64,000 bases of DNA from an uncultured Bordetella sp. (GTDB lineage: Bacteria; Pseudomonadota; Gammaproteobacteria; Burkholderiales; SG8-41): contig CAZAOZ010000012.1 in assembly GCA_964486865.1 (NCBI GenBank), positions 1,870-65,869 on the forward strand, read 5' to 3'. The translations under genes were made by a program, and so were the position numbers. This document shows positions 1 through 30,371 of the stretch, piece by piece; positions within the stretch are counted from its first letter, which is position 1, and every line of letters begins with the position of its first letter. Under the pieces are notes generated by a model that worked only from the letters and a program-made list of their open reading frames with translations, was not told the origin of the DNA and made no database searches.

Positions 1-852
1 AAGACACGCTTCAACCGCGGCTACCAGCACTGGCAAATATTCCGGACGCCCTCCAGCCATCGCCAGCGCAATCGCACAGGTCTCGACGGTGGTAATGCCG
101 CCGCGCGGCGGAAACTTGCCCAGCACCTGCGTGCGCGGAAAAGCCGCGCCGCGCAATATCCAGTCCACGCGCTCGCGTGTTGCCGGCCATATCGGCAGAC
201 CGTCGCCCCACAGATTGGTGATCAGCAGGTTGTTGGCTTTCTGCAGTGCGTCTTCGTACGTTTTGCCTTCGACGCTGAGCATCGGCAGTTCGCCATTGGA
301 TGATGGCGTGAAGCCGGACTGCCATTTCATCAATCCGTTGTAAAACTCCCTCTTGCGCGCAGTGATGGTCGACAGGTCGCTGCCCGGCAGGAACATGTCG
401 ATGGGGAACGTCACCATCGCGGCGTCCGGTGCCAGACCGAGACCCGACACGGCGTTTTTCATGACGCCGACGAAATCCGTCCGCGTCAGCGTGACGGTGG
501 GAATGCCCATTGTTTCGATCCTCGCGACTGCACGGCCGCAAGCGGTGGCGCAGGACCCTCAGGCCGCGTTGCCGACGATGACGGCGTCCACCCCGCTCTG
601 TTTGACGAGCTTTGCCGTCTCCTCGGTGGGAATCAGCGCGTTGCCTTGCGGATAGGCGTCGATCGGCAGCAGTTCCGCCGTCGGATAATCCGCCTTCAGC
701 AGATCGCGCAGCAGCGGCAGCATGCGAAACGCCTGCCACTGCTCGTTGCTGACAAAGCCGATACGCTTGCCGGCCAGCGTATCGATGCGTGGCGCGAATG
801 ATTGCGTAACTTCCAGCGCACCGGATGGATCGTGGAATTCAATTCTGGTCAT
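1..852 (-). CDS. UGSC-motif (GrdB-like) candidate selenoprotein fused to a homolog of the 347-aa UGSC-partner protein. In-frame TGA (Sec) at 559-561. The 3' end runs off the window.
   Basis: The minus-strand frame is open from ATG 852-850 (AGGAGGG RBS about 8 nt upstream) to the window edge if TGA 561-559 is read through. The translation ...DAVIVGNAA-U-GSCATACGRAVARIETMGIPTVTLTRTDF... aligns on both sides of the TGA with the protein at 18708-19232. Later residues (NLWGDGLPIWPATRERV...TTVETCAIALAMAGGRPEYLPVLVAAVEA) align with the N-terminus of 19253-20296. The ORF track shows only the part upstream of the TGA (559..960). Confidence 0.7.
528..553 (-). other. Candidate SECIS-like hairpin downstream of TGA 559-561
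   Basis: Minus-strand sequence CTGCGC-CA-CCG-CTTG-CGG-CC-GTGCAG gives a 6-bp lower stem (one G-U), a 2x2 internal loop, a 3-bp upper stem and a CUUG loop. The loop begins 16 nt after the UGA. Folded by eye only. Confidence 0.4.
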
Positions 853-5399: not shown

Positions 5400-6380
5400 A
5401 TGATAACAATCCGGAACAATGCATTACTCGGAGTCCTGATCGCGCTGGCGGCGACGCCGGCGTGGTCACAAGGCAGTGCAGCGGGTTATCCCGCAAAGCC
5501 CATCCGCATCGTCGTGCCTACCGCGCCGGGCGGGGGTGTCGATGCCTCGGCGCGCATCATCGGCCAGAAACTTCTGGAAGTTTGGGGACAGCCCGTCCTC
5601 GTGGACAATCGCGGCGGCGCCTCGGGCATCATCGGCGCCGAGATCGTGGCCCGCGCCCCCGCCGACGGCCACACGCTGCTGGTCACACCGACCACGTTCA
5701 GCACCAACGTGAGCCTGTTCAAAAAACTGCCCTACGATACACGCAAGGATTTCATTCCGATATCCCTGATCTCCAAAGAGCCGAACATACTGATGGTACA
5801 TCCCTCACTGCCGGTGAAATCCGTAAAGGACCTGGTTGCCCTGGCCAAGCGCAGGCCGGCGGACCTCAACTTCGGTTTCGGAGGGGTCGGGAGTACAGCC
5901 AGCCTTTCCGGCGAATTGTTCAAACTCAAGGCGGGTGTGAATATGGCCGGCGTGTCTTTCAAGGGTAATGGCCCGGCCGTTACGGCGTTGGTGGCGGGAG
6001 AAGTCCAGGTGATGTTTCCCGGACTGCCTGCAACATTGTCGATGATCAAATCCGGCAAATTGCGCGCGCTGGCCATAACGTCCTCGAAACGTTCGTCGTA
6101 CCTGCCGGACGTGCCGACCATGGCGGAAGCGGGCATTCCCGGATTCGAGGTAACCAACTGGATCGGCGCTCTGGCACCCGCGCAGACCCCCGGAGAAATC
6201 GTCAAAAAGCTGAACGCCGGGCTGGTGCAGATTCTCGCCATGCCCGCCACCAGGGAACGTTTCGCTGTTGTCGGCGTGACACCCGACAGCAGTACCGTCG
6301 ATGAATTCAGGATGTTTCTTCATTCGGAAATCGAGCGCTGGGGCCATGTGGTCAAGGCGGCCGGCATTCCAGTCAACTGA
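5400..6380 (+). CDS. Bug/TctC family tripartite tricarboxylate transporter substrate-binding protein
   Basis: Signal peptide followed by YPAKPIRIVVPTAPGGGVDASARIIGQKL...VDNRGGASG...DGHTLL..., the family hallmark. GGAGGAA RBS. Confidence 0.9.
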   Translation: MITIRNNALLGVLIALAATPAWSQGSAAGYPAKPIRIVVPTAPGGGVDASARIIGQKLLEVWGQPVLVDNRGGASGIIGAEIVARAPADGHTLLVTPTTFSTNVSLFKKLPYDTRKDFIPISLISKEPNILMVHPSLPVKSVKDLVALAKRRPADLNFGFGGVGSTASLSGELFKLKAGVNMAGVSFKGNGPAVTALVAGEVQVMFPGLPATLSMIKSGKLRALAITSSKRSSYLPDVPTMAEAGIPGFEVTNWIGALAPAQTPGEIVKKLNAGLVQILAMPATRERFAVVGVTPDSSTVDEFRMFLHSEIERWGHVVKAAGIPVN

Positions 6381-18707: not shown

Positions 18708-19232
18708 CTAGCGCCGGGTCAGCAGCGGCACGATCGCATCGACGGCGATACGCGCCTTCTGCCGCAGCACAGCGTCGTCATTGTTGGCGACCGGATGCGC
18801 GATCACCGCGAAGGGATAATCCTTCAGGCCGTTGACGCCGGCCACCGCTCTTGCGGTGGCGACGAAGCGGTCGGTCATGATCGCGACCGCCGGGATGCCG
18901 AGCCGTTCGGCTTCGATGGCGTCGTGCAAACTGCACGACGAGCAACTGCCTCAGTCGCCGGTGGCGGCGAGGATGGCGTCCGCGCCGCGCATCTCCATCA
19001 GCATCGGCGGCGGCACCGGCCGCGAGGCGTCGGGCTTGCGCCGGCGAATGCACTCGCGCACGCGGTATTCCTTCTTCAGGATTTCCTCGATGAAGTCGAA
19101 CAGCCGTTCGGTGCCGATCTTGGCGTTGTCGATCATGCCGACCACCGCGCCGTCGAACGAGACGAGCGGCGGCGCCATGCGCAGCGCCTCGCCCTGCGCG
19201 GACTGTGTGGGATCAAGGACTCTGAGCATCAT
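18708..19232 (-). CDS. UGSC-motif (GrdB-like) candidate selenoprotein, 174 aa, Sec encoded by TGA 18951-18953
   Basis: ORFs 18951..19439 and 18708..18929 are in the same frame, separated only by a TGA. The joined translation reads ...GADAILAATGD-U-GSCSSCSLHDAIEAERLGIPAVAIMTDRF... and aligns with the paralog at 1-852 on both sides of the TGA. ATG 19232 has a GGGAGG RBS. A perfect hairpin follows the TGA. Confidence 0.8.
18920..18940 (-). other. Candidate SECIS hairpin for TGA 18951-18953
   Basis: Minus-strand CGTCGTGCA-GTT-TGCACGACG is a perfect 9-bp stem (or 8 bp with an AGUUU loop). The stem starts 10 nt after the UGA and the loop 19 nt after it. The loop contains G-U. Confidence 0.6.
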
Positions 19233-19252: not shown

Positions 19253-20296
19253 TCACGCGCCGACGGGTATCGTGACCGCCAGCGATTTCTTGCCGTACCA
19301 CGGCGGCAGTATCGCGCCGAAGCCGCCCGCGGGTCCGCCGGCGGCGATGACCAGCAGGTCGTCGGGCGAACGCAGCGCGCAGTACACCTTGTCCTCGTCC
19401 TTGCGCCCCGCGACTGCCGCCTTGCCGACGCCGCGCCATTCGCCGCGCTTCACCCGCGCCTTCTCGAACACGTAGTCGCGGATGTCCTGCTTGCTCCAGC
19501 CGGCAGCGGCAAAAATCTCGCGGTGCTGCTTCGGGATGACGACCGCGTAATTGCCCTCCCAGATCGAGTACAGCAGCATGTTGCTGCGCATCGCCGCGGC
19601 GTAGGTATCGAGGATTTCCTTCGGGTCATGCGTCCATTCGTTCATGATCTGCGTCGGCGACTCCACCTGCAGCGCAGTCACCGCCGACACGCCGGCGGGC
19701 ACGCCGCGCTCGACCGACAGCGGCAGCCACGGCGAATCCTCCTCGTCTTCCGCCACGCAGAAGGTGAACTTGCCCGGATGCCCCAATGTCGAGCGGTCGA
19801 GCTGACCCGGAATGCCGCCCAGCACGTTGAGCAGGATCAGGCGGATGCTGCGGCCGATGGTGGCATTGGCACGGCAGGCGTTGGCGAGCACGTTGTGCGT
19901 CGCGTTCATGCCGATCGCGAGCCGGATGGGTCCGTTGACGACAATGAAAGGCGCGCTGCCGCCGGTACTCGCCGTACTCCCGTGCAGTGCGTACTCGGGC
20001 TGGCACATGGCCCTGACGATGGCAACGACGACCGGCAGGCATTCCGGCAGGCAACCGGCCATCACGGCAGCGATCGCGATTTTTTCAGCGGTAATGCTGC
20101 GGCGGCGCACCGGCTCGACACCGACGACGTCGGCGGCATCAAGCTCCGCTGCGGCCAGGAATTCCGCAACCGCATCCTCGGTCGGCGCAACGATGGGCAG
20201 GCCATCGGTCCAACCGTTGCGCTGGAACAGCTCGTTGGCTTCCGCCGCGTCGGCGACTTCGTGAATGGCACTCGAAAATTTCGGTACGGCGCTCAT
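19253..20296 (-). CDS. Conserved hypothetical protein (347 aa), UGSC-partner family
   Basis: No named family recognised. The N-terminal region (NGWTDGLPIVAPTEDAV...ITAEKIAIAAVMAGCLPECLPVVVAIVRA) is homologous to the C-terminal extension of the fused gene at 1-852. It ends 20 nt upstream of the UGSC gene. Confidence 0.75.
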   Translation of the reverse strand: MSAVPKFSSAIHEVADAAEANELFQRNGWTDGLPIVAPTEDAVAEFLAAAELDAADVVGVEPVRRRSITAEKIAIAAVMAGCLPECLPVVVAIVRAMCQPEYALHGSTASTGGSAPFIVVNGPIRLAIGMNATHNVLANACRANATIGRSIRLILLNVLGGIPGQLDRSTLGHPGKFTFCVAEDEEDSPWLPLSVERGVPAGVSAVTALQVESPTQIMNEWTHDPKEILDTYAAAMRSNMLLYSIWEGNYAVVIPKQHREIFAAAGWSKQDIRDYVFEKARVKRGEWRGVGKAAVAGRKDEDKVYCALRSPDDLLVIAAGGPAGGFGAILPPWYGKKSLAVTIPVGA

Positions 20297-20329: not shown

Positions 20330-20833
20330 TTAGCCCCGAATCGGCGCCGCCGCCACCGTCTCCGCCAGGAAATCCAGCGCCGCCGCGGTGAACGCGTGCA
20401 TGTTGGCCACGCGATCGCTGCTGCCGGTTTCCAGCGTGCGCGTGCGTTCGACGGTGCCCGCCACCGCAAAACACGCGTGCCCCGGCGGATAGCCGTAGCG
20501 GCTGCCGGTCGGCCCCGCCGCGCCGGTCTCGGTAAGCGCCCAGTCAGTCGCCACCCGCTCGCGGGTGCGGCGCGCCTTGAGCAGCGCATAGGTTTCGGTG
20601 GACGGCGTGATGCCACGCATCTCGTCGTCACTGATGCCCAGCATCGCGCGGCGCATTTCATAGGTGTAAACGACGATGCCGCCGCGCACGCACGCCGAAG
20701 CGCCGGGCACCGCGAGCAGCGCCGCCGTGATCAGCCCGCCCGCCGACGATTCGGCCACCGCGATGGTCTGCTTGCGCGCGATCAGCAGCGCCACGGCGCG
20801 CTCGGCGTGGGGCAGCAATTCATTCATGGCCAT
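20330..20833 (-). CDS. CinA-family C-terminal domain protein (PncC-like nicotinamide-nucleotide amidohydrolase fold)
   Basis: TIAVAESSAGGLITAALLAVPGASACVRGGIVVYTYEMRRAMLGI...WALTETGAAGP matches the CinA_C pattern (AESCTGG-like). Confidence 0.85.
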   Translation of the reverse strand: MAMNELLPHAERAVALLIARKQTIAVAESSAGGLITAALLAVPGASACVRGGIVVYTYEMRRAMLGISDDEMRGITPSTETYALLKARRTRERVATDWALTETGAAGPTGSRYGYPPGHACFAVAGTVERTRTLETGSSDRVANMHAFTAAALDFLAETVAAAPIRG

Positions 20834-20852
20834 CTCCGGTATCGATGTGCGC

Positions 20853-21407
20853 CTAACGCGCGGCGAGAAACGCTTCGAACTCGCCCTGCCGCGTGGACAG
20901 GGTTTTCAGCCAGCGCTGTCCGCCGAACGTGAAGCCGATCCAGTAGCCGAGCTCCACGATTTCCGGCTCAGTGAATTCGCCCTTCAATTCGCCCCAGAGC
21001 TGGTCGCCCGCCTGCGTCGGGTCGTACATGATCGCGTCAGCGTAACGCAGCGCGATCTTCTCGCGGGTCGTGAATTTTGCGGATTTCTCGTAGTTCATGA
21101 GTTCCGCCATCTTGCCGCCGGCATCCTGCGCAGACCGCGCAGTTCCCTGATTGCTTCAGTAGCCGCATTCGATGGTGAACGCGACATAGGCGCGCGTGAG
21201 TTCCTTCAGATCGTGCTCGAGCACCCCGGCGTTGTTGTCGAAAAGCATTTTCCGGGTCAGCGTGAATGACCGCATCACGCCAGGCTGGTGCGCGCGTATC
21301 GCCTGGTTTTCGGGGCCGGGGCGGCCGTCGCGGCGTGCCTCCTCCAGCCACTGGCGCACCTCGGGGTCGCGGATCGTGTCGGGGTCAACGTAACTGAGCC
21401 GGGCCAT
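20853..21407 (-). CDS. Carboxymuconolactone decarboxylase/AhpD-like candidate selenoprotein (CxxU), Sec encoded by TGA 21156-21158
   Basis: ORFs 21156..21428 and 20853..21110 share a frame across one TGA. The joined translation reads ...RAYVAFTIE-C-GY-U-SNQGTARSAQDAGGKMAELMNYEKSAKFTTREKIALRYADAIMYDP..., which places the TGA where CMD/AhpD-like proteins carry the second Cys of CxxC. ATG 21407 has a GAAGGAG RBS. Confidence 0.8.
21126..21142 (-). other. Candidate SECIS hairpin for TGA 21156-21158
   Basis: Minus-strand CTGCGC-GGTCT-GCGCAG is a perfect 6-bp stem with a GGUCU apical loop starting 19 nt after the UGA. As I recall it, the apical part of the E. coli fdhF SECIS (GCAGGUCUGC) has the same GGUCU and a similar distance. 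Confidence 0.6.
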
Positions 21408-21519
21408 GCAGCGGACTCCTTCTGGCAATCATGAAATAATTGATGCTACCCTGAACGCAGCCGGCATCGCTGTCAACCCATCCATTGCCCGGCACCTGTC
21501 AGACATGAGGAAACCCGCC

Positions 21520-22491
21520 ATGAATATCCGAATGCTCGCAGCCCTCGCGGCCGCGGCGCCCCTGATGCTTGCCGCCGCACACGCGGCCGATACCGCGCAG
21601 TACCCCACAAAACCCATACGCCTGATCGTGCCGCAGCAGGCCGGCAGTTCCAACGATACGCTGAGCCGGGTGGTGACCAATTTGCTCGGCGAGGCGCTGG
21701 GGCAGCAAATGGTCGTGGACAACCGCGCCGGCGTGGGCGGAATCATCGGCATGGAAATCGGCGCCGCGGCGGTGCCCGACGGTTACACGCTGGTGTCCAT
21801 GGCGACCGCGCAGGTCATCTCGCCATACCTGCAGAAAAAACTCGCTTACGACACGCTCAGGGATTTCGCGCCGATCTCGCTGTACGGCATCACCTACAAC
21901 GTGTTCATTGCGCACCCGTCGCTGCCGGCAGCGAACGTGAAGGATTTTGTGGCGCTCGCCAAAGCGAAGCCGGGCACGATCAACATGGCATCGGCGGGCC
22001 CGGGCTCGCAAAGCCATCTCGCCGGCGTGATGTTCTCGCTGGCCACCGGCATCAACGTGCTGCATGTCCCGTACAAGGGCGCCGGCGCGTCGGTCGGCGC
22101 GGTATTCGCCAACGAGTCGCAGTTCGCCGTGACGCCGCTCCCGTCCACCGTCGGGCACATCAGGTCCGGACGCCTGAAGGCGCTCGCCCTGAGCTCGAAG
22201 AAGCGTTCACCGTCCGCATCCGACATCCCGACGTTCATCGAGCAGGGATTCAATTTCGAGTCGAGCGGCTGGAACGGCCTCATCGCGCCCAAAAACACGC
22301 CCAAACCCGTCATCGACAAGCTCCTGGCGACGCTGCACAAGGTTGCCGCAACGCCCGCGTTCAAGGAACAGATCGCGCGGCAGGGCGCAGAAGTGATCGT
22401 CAATACGCCGCAGGAGTTTGCGCAGTTCATCCGCGCGGAATTCGACAAGTTCGGGCCGGTGGTGAAAGCCGCGAACCTCCAGGCCTACTGA
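21520..22491 (+). CDS. Bug/TctC family substrate-binding protein
   Basis: MNIRMLAALAAAAPLMLAAAHAADTAQYPTKPIRLIVPQQAGSSNDTLSR...VDNRAGVGG...DGYTLV. GAGGAAA RBS before ATG 21520. Confidence 0.85.
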   Translation: MNIRMLAALAAAAPLMLAAAHAADTAQYPTKPIRLIVPQQAGSSNDTLSRVVTNLLGEALGQQMVVDNRAGVGGIIGMEIGAAAVPDGYTLVSMATAQVISPYLQKKLAYDTLRDFAPISLYGITYNVFIAHPSLPAANVKDFVALAKAKPGTINMASAGPGSQSHLAGVMFSLATGINVLHVPYKGAGASVGAVFANESQFAVTPLPSTVGHIRSGRLKALALSSKKRSPSASDIPTFIEQGFNFESSGWNGLIAPKNTPKPVIDKLLATLHKVAATPAFKEQIARQGAEVIVNTPQEFAQFIRAEFDKFGPVVKAANLQAY

Positions 22492-28169: not shown

Positions 28170-28544
28170 CTATGCCGCATGAAGTTCATCCGGCTGCCTG
28201 ATCAGACTTTCTGCGGGAATATCCAGGCCACGATGCAATTTCCAGATCATCCTCAGGGTCAGCGGACGCTTGTGGTTAAGGATTTCGTAAACCCGGTTCA
28301 AGCGGCCAATCATCGGCTCCAAATCCTTGGGGGTCAGGCCCTTCTGGTCCATCTGAAATTTGATGGCTTCCACCGGATCGGGCAGTTCGAGCGGAAAGTG
28401 TTTTCTTTCGTAGGCTTCAATCAATGTGACCAGAACATCAAGGCGTTCGCCATCAGCGGTATTTGCCCTGGCGCCCATCAGGGACTCAACCACTTTCAGG
28501 GTTGCGCGATAGTCTGCCTTGGTCTTGATCGGTTTAATATCCAT
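28170..28544 (-). CDS. higA: HigA-type antitoxin (C-terminal XRE HTH)
   Basis: ...FQMDQKGLTPKDLEPMIGRLNRVYEILNHKRPLTLRMIWKLHRGLDIPAESLI resembles E. coli HigA (YgjM) architecture. GGAGGTG RBS before ATG 28544. Lies immediately downstream of higB. Confidence 0.8.
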   Translation of the reverse strand: MDIKPIKTKADYRATLKVVESLMGARANTADGERLDVLVTLIEAYERKHFPLELPDPVEAIKFQMDQKGLTPKDLEPMIGRLNRVYEILNHKRPLTLRMIWKLHRGLDIPAESLIRQPDELHAA

Positions 28545-28555
28545 CGTCACCTCCA

Positions 28556-28858
28556 TCAAATAGTCTGAGCGTCAATCTCATCGTACTGGGCATGTGTGCC
28601 AATGAAGCGAACGTACACCACACGGTACGGATAGTTAATCCACACCACCAGCCGGTATTTGTTGCCGGCAAGATTGAATACCACGCGCCCGTCACGGAGG
28701 ATGCTGGCGCTACCGAATGACGCCTTTACCTCTGCCGGCGATGCCCAGTCCGCCTTGAGCGCCTGACGGTACCAAGCCAATCCGGGCTCTCTGGCATCCC
28801 GATACGCACGGTTAGTTTCCCAGAACGCCTTTAACGTCGAAAGCGCAATAACCCGCAT
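28556..28858 (-). CDS. higB: HigB-type toxin (mRNA interferase, RelE superfamily)
   Basis: MRVIALSTLKAFWE...VVFNLAGNKYRLVVWINYPYRVVYVRFIGTHAQYDEID matches the HigB (YgjN-like) pattern FN(I/L)xGNKYRL...THxEYD. Confidence 0.85.
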   Translation of the reverse strand: MRVIALSTLKAFWETNRAYRDAREPGLAWYRQALKADWASPAEVKASFGSASILRDGRVVFNLAGNKYRLVVWINYPYRVVYVRFIGTHAQYDEIDAQTI

Positions 28859-28867
28859 GGAAAGAGT

Positions 28868-28888
28868 ATAGTCCCAATATGGGACTAT
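28868..28888. promoter_or_regulatory. Candidate HigA/HigBA operator palindrome overlapping a -10-like TATACT
   Basis: ATAGTCCCA-ATA-TGGGACTAT (9-bp perfect arms) lies 10-30 nt upstream of the higB ATG. The minus strand reads ...GGGACTATACTCTTTCCATG. Confidence 0.5.
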
Positions 28889-29673
28889 CGCAAGCCTGTC
28901 AGCACCGGACTGCGCAGCACGCCGATGTCTTTTTGCACGATCTCGCACACATCACCATCCTTGAGATCAGGCTCGGTCGCATCGTCTGTGCCCAGCCAGA
29001 TCACATCACCGGGATGCAGCGTCATGTACTGCGTGATCTTCGCAATGAAATGCTGCGCGGAGAACAGCATCTTGCCGGTGTGGTATCCGGCGACCTTGTT
29101 GCCGTTGATGTGGATGTCGATGGTCAGGTTCATCGGATCCAGCCCCGTGGCGATGAACGGGCCCATGGGCTTGAAGGTGTCGCAGTTTTTCGCGCGCCAC
29201 AGCGTGCGGTCGGTTTTCTGCCAGGTGCGCTCGCTGACATCGTTGCCCAGCGTGTAGCCGAGGATGCACGACAGCGCATTCGCTTCGGTGAGGTTTTTCG
29301 CCGTCTTGCCAACCACCGCCACCAGCTCGCCCTCGAACTGCACCGGGCCGGGGGAATCGGCGGGAATCACAATCGCCTCATTCGTCGCCACCAGCGCATT
29401 CGCCGAGCGGTAACCGACGTCGGCCTTCTCCGGCGGCTTGGTGTTGGTGCCCTTGCGCTTGTTGGCCCACTCGATATGCGCGGCGTAGTTCAGCCCCGCG
29501 CAGTAGAAGTTGCGCGGCTCGCAGGGAATGAGGGTTTTAAGCGCGGACAGCGCATGGGTCTTGCCGTTGGTCTTCCAGTTACCGAACGGCGAGCCGTCGA
29601 GTTCATCGACACGGTCGCCTTCGACGAGGCCGAAGAAGATGCGGGACTGGTGCTGGAAGCGGCCGAATTTCAT
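28885..29673 (-). CDS. Fumarylacetoacetate hydrolase (FAH) family protein
   Basis: MKFGRF...FYCAGLNYAAHIEW..., ...FEGELVAVVGK..., ...GYTLGNDVSERTWQ..., ...AKNCDTFKPMGP..., ...MTLHPGDVIWLGT are the FAH-fold metal and substrate motifs. Confidence 0.85.
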   Translation of the reverse strand: MKFGRFQHQSRIFFGLVEGDRVDELDGSPFGNWKTNGKTHALSALKTLIPCEPRNFYCAGLNYAAHIEWANKRKGTNTKPPEKADVGYRSANALVATNEAIVIPADSPGPVQFEGELVAVVGKTAKNLTEANALSCILGYTLGNDVSERTWQKTDRTLWRAKNCDTFKPMGPFIATGLDPMNLTIDIHINGNKVAGYHTGKMLFSAQHFIAKITQYMTLHPGDVIWLGTDDATEPDLKDGDVCEIVQKDIGVLRSPVLTGLR

Positions 29674-29786
29674 GCTTGCTGTTCTCCATGTAATCGTTGC
29701 GCCGACTGCCATGTTCGCATGTCTGCGTCCCCGCGGCACGACCGCATGCCGCAGACACCGGCCTCAGGCAATGACTACTGAATTGA

Positions 29787-30371
29787 TCAACTGTGCACAA
29801 ACGCCAGCAACGCCGCATAGTCGCCGGCATCCGCCGCACGCAATGCCGCAAGGTAACGATCGCGCGCATCACCACCCGCCTCAAGGTTCGCCCCACCCCA
29901 GCTGAATGATGCGGCGCCGTTCCGCCGCAACAGCACGTCCGTCATCAACCGCGCATGACGGCCGTTGCCGTTCGGAAAGGGGTGGATCGCCACCAGCCGG
30001 TGGTGAAACCGCACCGCGATTTCGTCCAGCGGATACGTACGGTGCCCGATCCAGTAGCGCGTGTTCTCCAGCAGTTCGCGCAACTGCACGGCCACCTGCG
30101 CGGCATCCACGCCGATATTCTTGCCGGTGGTGCGGAACGTACCCGCCCAGCGCCAGGTGCCGCCGAACAGGCGGCGATGCAGCTCGCGCACAAAATGTTC
30201 GCTCAGCACGTCGCGCTCGCGTGAGCGCATCGCCCACGCGCTGCCCTCCAGCACATTCGCCTGCTCCCACTGGTTCAGCTCGGCTTGCGTGCGGATGTGG
30301 CCGGGAATCAGGCCGCGTGCCTCGTCGGGATCGAGCGGCGTCGCGCCCGGCGCGTGTGCGTCGCCGATCAT
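29787..30371 (-). CDS. Fic-domain protein of the 'mobile mystery protein B' type
   Basis: GATPLDPDEARGLIPGHIRTQAELNQWEQANV... plus the Fic motif HPFPNGNGRHARLMTD. 194 aa. Confidence 0.85.
   Translation of the reverse strand: MIGDAHAPGATPLDPDEARGLIPGHIRTQAELNQWEQANVLEGSAWAMRSRERDVLSEHFVRELHRRLFGGTWRWAGTFRTTGKNIGVDAAQVAVQLRELLENTRYWIGHRTYPLDEIAVRFHHRLVAIHPFPNGNGRHARLMTDVLLRRNGAASFSWGGANLEAGGDARDRYLAALRAADAGDYAALLAFVHS

Follow-up and report, generated by a model that had tools for sequence, protein, structure and literature searches.

A 64,000-nt stretch of DNA from an uncultured Bordetella sp. (contig CAZAOZ010000012.1; the whole stretch is called the window, and all coordinates are counted within it) carries on its minus strand, at 20853..21407, a gene for an AhpD-like protein whose frame contains a TGA at codon 84. 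We judge, with high confidence, that this region is a selenocysteine (Sec)-encoding gene with a functional selenocysteine insertion sequence (SECIS); it is predicted to encode one 184-residue selenoprotein, not two small genes. The specific redox role suggested for the product is put forward with lower confidence. The evidence is given below in the order reading frame, conservation of the TGA, hairpin and protein family, followed by the points on the other side, the alternative explanations and the neighbouring genes.

Gene structure and reading frame

The coding sequence (CDS) and its landmarks were as follows:

20853..21407, minus strand: predicted CDS of the AhpD-like selenoprotein, 184 codons with Sec at codon 84 (translation, Cys homologues and 60 TGA orthologues)
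21416..21420, minus strand: Shine-Dalgarno-like AGGAG, 8 nt before the ATG (read from the sequence)
21407..21405, minus strand: start codon ATG (read from the sequence)
21165..21167, minus strand: TGC codon of Cys81, with which the CxxU redox motif opens (the same residue in every aligned homologue)
21156..21158, minus strand: in-frame UGA, codon 84, proposed Sec (Cys in aligned homologues, TGA in 60 related loci)
20855..20853, minus strand: stop codon TAG (read from the sequence)

The TGA is the only one in frame within the 184 codons. The joined minus-strand translation reads ...AFTIE-C-G-Y-*-SNQG...FTTREKIALRYADAIM... and places the TGA in the motif C81-G-Y-U84, which confirms the joined reading AFTIE-C-GY-U-SNQG given in a preliminary description of this DNA. 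Plus-strand open reading frames (ORFs) that overlap the gene (e.g. 20676..21269) were judged to be antisense artefacts of the high G+C content.

Conservation of the in-frame TGA

A homologue search over 5.8 billion proteins returned 505 relatives. The best were full-length proteins of 181-223 aa with 54-64% identity to the window protein; those with a taxon label were mostly from Acidimicrobiia, and several were named 'alkylhydroperoxidase family enzyme' or 'carboxymuconolactone decarboxylase family protein'. The preliminary description had proposed that the Cys/Sec column be inspected in an alignment: opposite the TGA, all aligned full-length homologues (23/23) carried Cys, the second Cys of an invariant C-x-Y-C.

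Genomic loci were scanned in GTDB r232 with one genome per species, and the 80 best loci (L001-L080) were compared, the window copy being additional. Codon 84 was TGA in 60 of these (L001-L059 and L080), with 63-95% protein identity; they were titled Burkholderiales/Betaproteobacteria metagenome-assembled genomes (MAGs), together with one Candidatus Rariloculaceae chromosome (L059). The remaining 20 loci had TGC or TGT at this codon and were mostly titled Acidimicrobiia or other Actinomycetota. The Cys forms lay at or below ~63% identity, in a set of taxa distinct from that of the TGA forms, and no Cys form from Betaproteobacteria was present among the 80 best loci. Ten of the loci that carry the betaproteobacterial-type gene (L007, L009, L010, L019, L035, L037, L044, L045, L055 and L080) are likely to be mislabelled submissions, the suspect MAG titles among these carriers being 'Bordetella parapertussis', 'uncultured Streptomycetaceae', 'Streptomyces sp.' and 'Chitinophaga pinensis'.

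At each TGA locus an ATG or GTG start was followed by 83 codons before the TGA (85 in L059) and by 100-133 stop-free codons after it. The Cys81 codon was TGC or TGT in 59/59 Sec forms. Directly after the TGA, codons 85-88 (S-N-Q-G) differed among 59 sequences only by synonymous third-position changes, which is direct evidence of translation beyond the UGA. Many of the genes with this TGA also have TGA as their terminal codon, and UGA thus serves as a normal stop in these genomes.

A methionine codon, Met100, lies 15 codons past the Sec codon (region 21111..21158, minus strand) and was invariant in the 59 Sec forms; most aligned Cys forms had Leu in this column and a few had Met. Met100 is the start that gene callers choose for a false 85-aa ORF.

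Candidate SECIS hairpin

The RNA downstream of the UGA is predicted to fold into a short hairpin:

21126..21142, minus strand: predicted SECIS hairpin, 6-bp stem CUGCGC/GCGCAG with a 5-nt loop GGUCU
21142..21137, minus strand: 5' arm CUGCGC
21136..21132, minus strand: loop GGUCU
21131..21126, minus strand: 3' arm GCGCAG

The hairpin begins 13 nt past the UGA, and its first loop base follows after exactly 19 nt. The coordinates thus agree with the preliminary description, which had named CUGCGC-GGUCU-GCGCAG and a loop starting 19 nt after the UGA. The fold energy is -9.2 kcal/mol. In the published model of the bacterial SECIS (bSECIS), a loop of 3-9 nt with a G in its first two positions is carried on a stem of 4-16 bp, at 16-37 nt from the UGA (PMC13188914), and the window hairpin agrees with this model in loop, stem, loop G and spacing.

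As a single sequence the hairpin did not stand out. The z-score of the 61-nt fold was -0.77, not beyond chance, and for the core GCGCGGTCNGCGC 0.27 copies were expected per shuffled window, with at least one copy in 24 of 100 shuffles. Since such a hairpin is by itself unremarkable in G+C-rich DNA, the case rests on the related sequences, and the comparative evidence puts the hairpin far beyond chance. Over 59 distinct TGA sequences, 98% of the stem cells were paired across the six pairs, and compensatory changes occurred at two of them: pair 2 was C-G (52 sequences), U-A (3) or A-U (2), and pair 5 was G-C (57) or A-U (1). The covariation score and the percentage of paired cells were reached in none of 500 column shuffles, and when the register was slid only 18-64% of the cells paired.

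The coding constraint on the stem was visible at the codon level. At pair 2 the 5' base is a silent one, the third of a Thr codon, and it pairs with the middle position of an Arg codon, so that maintaining the pair changes Arg to Gln or Leu; pairing is here kept at the expense of the protein. The stem codons were fixed (Ala90 GCG 59/59, Arg91 CGG 56/56, Ala93 GCG 59/59), whereas the other Ala and Arg codons of the gene used 4-6 synonyms, and codons 89-94 were the minimum of six-codon synonymous entropy over the whole gene. The last loop base alone was free (C, G or U). In the hairpin columns, the TGA forms made 5.9 of 6 pairs on average and the Cys forms 1.95 of 6. A loop G was present at position 1 or 2 in 61/61 loci and a GGUC-N loop in 55/61; the Rariloculaceae locus (L059) had a different hairpin, CGCCC-GUG-GGGCG, at the same place.

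The element was compared with the SECIS of Escherichia coli fdhF, in which the TGA is followed by 18 nt and then by GGTCT inside GCAGGTCTGC; this stretch was present at 100% identity in the top-listed records and at 99% or more in 5413 records. The apical region of fdhF and the similar distance from the UGA, both cited in the preliminary description, were correct, and the fdhF-like character that it had assigned to the window hairpin held on loop and spacing against E. coli as well as on the bSECIS model (PMC13188914). Both elements have a GGUCU loop, with 18 nt (fdhF) and 19 nt (window) between UGA and loop, and both lie within coding sequence directly after the UGA. They differ in the stem, which in the window is a perfect, G+C-rich helix of 6 bp closed by C-G, without the bulged U and the long lower helix of fdhF, and in the last loop base, which is free in the window family.

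Protein family, fold and predicted active site

The best NCBIfam match was NF053654, 'GroundWater_YciW: YciW-related (seleno)protein' (54.7 bits, E 1e-14), on which residues 1-159 of 184 aligned with profile positions 1-158 of 179. TIGR01926, 'peroxidase-related enzyme', gave 34.1 bits (E 2.2e-8; residues 4-159 on profile positions 3-160 of 178), a sequence match that indicates relatedness at the superfamily level only. Some of the Cys homologues carry a precomputed match to PF02627, the carboxymuconolactone decarboxylase (CMD) family. A profile of the family matched solved AhpD-like proteins, namely Atu0492 (2gmy), the CMD-family debrominase Bmp8 (6ohi) and Pseudomonas aeruginosa PA0269 (2ijc/2o4d/7xw1), and in these alignments the C-x-Y-C fell on C-A-F-C, C-M-Y-C or C-A-Y-C of the solved proteins. 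The AlphaFold model was all-helical, with a mean predicted local distance difference test (pLDDT) score of 69.5 and core residues 61-160 at 70-95. When it was searched with Foldseek, the top 35 PDB matches were all AhpD-like/CMD proteins (probability 0.98-1.00; template modelling (TM) score up to 0.69 on the target). The assignment to AhpD/CMD-like proteins in the preliminary description was upheld by the near-full-length, sub-threshold NCBIfam matches, by the alignment of CxxC on CxxC in the PDB profiles and by the 35 fold matches.

The proton relay of PA0269 consists of Glu36, Cys48, Tyr50, Cys51 and His55 (PMC3141380), and the first four of these align with Glu69, Cys81, Tyr83 and Sec84 of the window protein. 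According to the passage of PMC6626918 that cites Bryk 2002 and Koshkin 2004, the second Cys of Mycobacterium tuberculosis AhpD (Cys133) is exposed and attacks AhpC, and Cys130 is its buried partner; by this comparison Sec84 would occupy the attacking and not the resolving position. Since the AhpD of Burkholderia thailandensis reportedly depends more on the first Cys (PMC6626918), this assignment is by analogy only. The attacking position is where Sec would be expected to pay off. Of the earlier statement that the TGA sits at the resolving Cys, one part stood, as the TGA column is the second Cys of CxxC in 23/23 homologues; the resolving role gave way to an attacking one on the M. tuberculosis precedent.

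Contrary evidence and alternative explanations

Several results weigh against a Sec-encoding AhpD-like gene, and they concern the family, the RNA element and the decoding machinery. The search with PF02627 that had been proposed for the joined sequence gave 16.1 bits, below the cut-off of 23 (E 0.011, residues 42-104), so that the family placement rests on the NCBIfam, PDB-profile and fold evidence; the curated cut-offs of NF053654 (310 bits) and TIGR01926 (81.8 bits) were not reached by scores of 54.7 and 34.1 bits. The AlphaFold model was of moderate confidence only, and its N-terminal 60 residues were poor. At the place of the relay His there is an invariant Gly88, so the chemistry may differ from that of classical AhpD. 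The stem has no bulged U and forms an unbroken 6-bp helix at almost every locus; in E. coli, a bulged U is part of the SelB recognition element, as an upper-stem SelB contact. Rfam returned no family for the hairpin, either over the locus at E up to 10 or over the window as a whole at gathering scores, and it appears to have no model that fits so short an element. ARAGORN found neither a tRNA-Sec nor any other tRNA in the window, and tblastn with E. coli SelA, SelB and SelD gave no match in the window or the 80 loci (~0.8 Mb, a small part of each genome). Indirect support for Sec decoding comes from two genes of the UGSC family in the window whose Sec codon is TGA. One of these selenoprotein genes lies 1.9 kb downstream of the AhpD-like gene in the same cluster; it is the strongest evidence on this point, and the organism very probably decodes Sec.

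A pseudogene would have arisen if a nonsense mutation from TGC or TGT to TGA had inactivated a Cys-containing AhpD-like gene; a single transition or transversion is enough for this, and public gene calls treat the TGA as a stop. However, the TGA recurs in 60 additional species-level genomes whose proteins are 63-95% identical, the frame is free of other stops and of frameshifts, the downstream half evolves as protein, and a dedicated conserved hairpin follows the TGA. A single contaminating sequence is excluded, as the loci differ by 5-37% in protein sequence. The translation of codons 85-88 disposes of a pseudogene, which we consider vanishingly improbable, and nearly disposes of two small proteins as well. 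In that case translation would stop at the UGA (83 aa) and restart at Met100 (85 aa), and the halves would form a split, one-Cys AhpD-like protein; the invariance of Met100 in the Sec forms would fit, and gene callers predict exactly these 83-aa and 85-aa ORFs. But in 59 sequences the 15-codon stretch from the UGA to Met100 keeps its frame and has no insertions or deletions, the S-N-Q-G shared with the Cys homologues varies only synonymously, and the aligned loci have nothing resembling a Shine-Dalgarno sequence ahead of Met100. A split protein would also lose the catalytic second Cys and leave the hairpin without a role, and we regard it as highly unlikely.

The remaining alternatives accept translation through the UGA or a constrained stem and explain them without Sec. 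Stable hairpins downstream of stop codons can promote read-through, and the UGA could be read by a near-cognate tRNA for Trp or Cys, or else through SelB with Cys-tRNASec, while the hairpin merely slows termination; the failure to find Sec machinery in the window or the 80 loci (~0.8 Mb) speaks for such selenium-free decoding. Yet the position is the catalytic Cys in every Cys homologue, the window also holds genes of a known selenoprotein family that have TGA as their Sec codon, and the hairpin has the GG/GU loop signature and the spacing of SelB-dependent elements (PMC13188914), which together make this very unlikely. The hairpin might instead be conserved only for the peptide A-R-S-A-R, or be another regulatory stem unrelated to UGA decoding, given that it lies within coding sequence and that Ala-Arg is present in the Cys forms too. 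A peptide would not account for the fixed codon choice (GCG 59/59, CGG 56/56, GCG 59/59) or for changes of Arg to Gln/Leu that track synonymous changes on the opposite arm; the Cys forms have the same A-R without the stem, and stem and TGA co-occur perfectly. We hold this explanation to be extremely unlikely, and a Sec-encoding gene is the reading followed below.

Proposed mechanism

On the evidence of sequence and comparison, UGA84 would be recoded as Sec. The GGUC-loop hairpin would act as a bacterial SECIS, as in E. coli fdhF, and would recruit SelB-GTP-Sec-tRNASec while the UGA is in the ribosomal A site. The product is predicted, from homology of fold and motif, to be an all-helical AhpD-like (COG2128/YciW-type) protein with a redox centre Cys81-Gly-Tyr-Sec84, and with Glu69 and Tyr83 where PA0269 and M. 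tuberculosis AhpD have residues of the proton relay. By family homology it would function as an AhpD-like thiol/selenol oxidoreductase, in which Sec84 would most likely attack an oxidised substrate, either a hydroperoxide or a partner protein in its sulfenate or disulfide form, Cys81 would then resolve Sec84 into a selenenylsulfide, and an upstream thiol reductant would re-reduce this bond. No ahpC gene adjoins the AhpD-like gene; together with the missing relay His, this makes a role other than classical AhpC recycling quite possible.

Relation to known selenoproteins and annotation

AhpD-like CxxU selenoproteins have been catalogued since 2005, at first from the Sargasso Sea and Global Ocean Sampling (GOS) metagenomes (PMC1088965, PMC2398784, PMC13188914), which documents the remark in the preliminary description that they are known from comparative-genomic surveys. 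The Sargasso Sea data contained 27, and the GOS data 299 of 'AhpD-like 1' (COG2128) and 70 of 'AhpD-like 2' (pfam02627) (PMC1088965, PMC2398784). They are listed in reviews of 2022 and 2026 and in BSepDB (PMC9312934, PMC13188914, PMC13326102), and in the table of the 2026 review the 'AhpD-like protein' selenoprotein family corresponds to TIGR01926 (PMC13188914). UGSC selenoproteins are likewise already known. A 2006 survey found a single selenoprotein family, the formate dehydrogenase FdhA, in the Betaproteobacteria genomes that it covered (PMC1794560).

The AhpD-like CxxU kind is therefore known, and it is the Burkholderiales branch of the window gene that is unannotated. The window protein shares with 'AhpD-like 1' (COG2128/YciW) the superfamily, a CxxU with Sec for the second Cys, and a near-full-length TIGR01926 match, and its Cys homologues are named 'alkylhydroperoxidase family enzyme' by the Joint Genome Institute (JGI). 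Its branch is set apart by the score of 34.1 bits against the TIGR01926 cut-off of 81.8, and by its occurrence in Burkholderiales/Betaproteobacteria MAGs and not in marine plankton or anaerobes; the nearest Cys relatives in our data are mostly from Actinomycetota. NF053654 is matched almost end to end and, by its name, mixes Sec and Cys forms, but with 54.7 bits against a cut-off of 310 the window protein is not a member of that equivalog. The branch is arguably a new subfamily. In the data analysed here it was confined to Burkholderiales-type MAGs and one gammaproteobacterium.

Among the characterised proteins, M. tuberculosis AhpD and PA0269, CxxC proteins of the peroxidase or AhpC-reductase type, share with the window protein the all-helical AhpD-like fold and the matching Glu, Cys, Tyr and Cys positions. 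They differ in the relay His (His55 of PA0269, His137 of M. tuberculosis AhpD), which is the invariant Gly88 in the window family, and the window protein has in addition an N-terminal extension of ~60 residues, Sec in place of Cys and no neighbouring ahpC. Bmp8 (6ohi), the second-best PDB sequence match, aligned with its C-M-Y-C on C-x-Y-C and on through the C-terminal GYWIGF...RW region, but the identity was only ~16% in the structural alignment.

In the public gene calls of four assemblies of the same organism the gene is split into ORFs of 83 and 85 aa, which have no Pfam match. Elsewhere, cluster members are called 'hypothetical protein' (e.g. MEQ1775628.1), and one C-terminal half is named 'alkylhydroperoxidase family enzyme'. 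The top matches of the 5.8-billion-protein search contained no full-length annotated Sec form.

The gene is present in at least 61 species-level genomes and is split in the calls examined (assemblies of the organism and near relatives). With the annotation corrected, the predicted proteomes of many Burkholderiales MAGs from soil, lakes and groundwater would gain a selenoprotein. The gene takes selenoprotein use in Betaproteobacteria beyond formate dehydrogenase, and in its cluster an AhpD-like and a UGSC selenoprotein gene stand together. With its 6-bp stem, GGUC loop, covariation and stemless Cys forms, the family offers a clean case on which predictors of SECIS elements and selenoproteins can be trained and tested. 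How Sec decoding and the AhpD family are understood does not change, as this is a correction of annotation and not a new mechanism.

Gene neighbourhood and further predicted selenoprotein genes

The neighbouring genes and the further selenoprotein candidates in the window were:

21520..22491, plus strand: gene for a TctC/Bug-family solute-binding protein, divergent from the AhpD-like gene (Pfam PF03401, 218 bits)
20330..20833, minus strand: CinA/PncC-like gene, 19 nt downstream of the AhpD-like gene (Pfam CinA, 132 bits)
19253..20296, minus strand: gene for a 347-aa protein, flanked by the CinA-like and UGSC genes (no match to a Pfam or NCBIfam family)
18708..19232, minus strand: second selenoprotein gene, UGSC family, with Sec UGA at 18953..18951 (NF041046, 126.9 bits against a cut-off of 125; PF24696, 164 bits)
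1..852, minus strand: third candidate selenoprotein, a UGSC paralogue with TGA at 559..561 in VGNAA-U-GSCATACG (PF24696, 78.8 bits)

The four minus-strand genes AhpD-like (Sec), CinA-like, 347-aa and UGSC (Sec) follow each other closely in this order. The CinA/PncC-like gene is probably co-transcribed with the AhpD-like gene, and no terminator-like site was found between the two on the minus strand; a promoter and terminator scan of the locus yielded nothing useful. An exact look-up of the CinA-like protein returned no record, for which a different start codon is the probable reason. The CinA-like gene was conserved only in L001, and beyond TctC the CinA-like, 347-aa and UGSC genes were common to only 1-2 of the 60 other loci.

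The TctC/Bug gene was the only recurrent neighbour across the 61 loci. It was directly adjacent in ~41 of them (divergent in ~22, convergent in ~15 and co-directional in 4), and nearly all of the adjacent genes were 48-84% identical to the window copy. Since these genomes are very densely populated with Bug genes, some of the adjacency could be due to chance. At least four TctC paralogues lie within 12 kb in the window.

The UGSC gene, in the same-strand cluster 1.9 kb downstream of the AhpD-like gene, has the translation ...ATGD*GSCSSC... with the motif D-U-G-S-C, and its UGA is followed by the hairpin CGUCGUGCA-GUU-UGCACGACG (9-bp stem, loop GUU), in which 19 nt again separate the UGA from the loop. 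This gene, too, is split in public gene calls, into pieces of 93 and 73 aa. The scan for other in-frame TGAs used cut-offs on the G+C content of third codon positions (GC3) that were too strict: it missed the AhpD-like TGA and flagged the UGSC gene, and it is an incomplete survey.

Paralogues of the 347-aa protein lie beside UGSC genes or are fused to them elsewhere. In the UGSC paralogue at 1..852 the frame stays open into a domain with homology to the 347-aa protein and then leaves the window, and this apparent fusion suggests that UGSC and 347-aa proteins work together. In L048 (3432..5797, minus strand of the locus), a UGSC-like gene with a TGA (FGV-U-GGC) and two 347-aa paralogues lie divergent from the AhpD-like Sec gene at 6001; this is a second, independent co-location of AhpD-like and UGSC selenoproteins, and it was not seen at the other 59 loci.

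The CxxU protein and one specific TctC/Bug protein, joined in some genomes by the UGSC and 347-aa partners, might form a selenium-dependent redox system that is so far unrecognised, is shared across the lineage of Burkholderiales-type Betaproteobacteria and has a substrate other than AhpC, a proposal that we regard as speculative and rather unlikely.

Elsewhere in the window (~28170..30371, corresponding to L083 1037..3238) there is a gene for a Fic-domain protein, and a HigB-toxin-family protein gene is followed by a 124-aa ORF, the latter two being a possible toxin-antitoxin pair.

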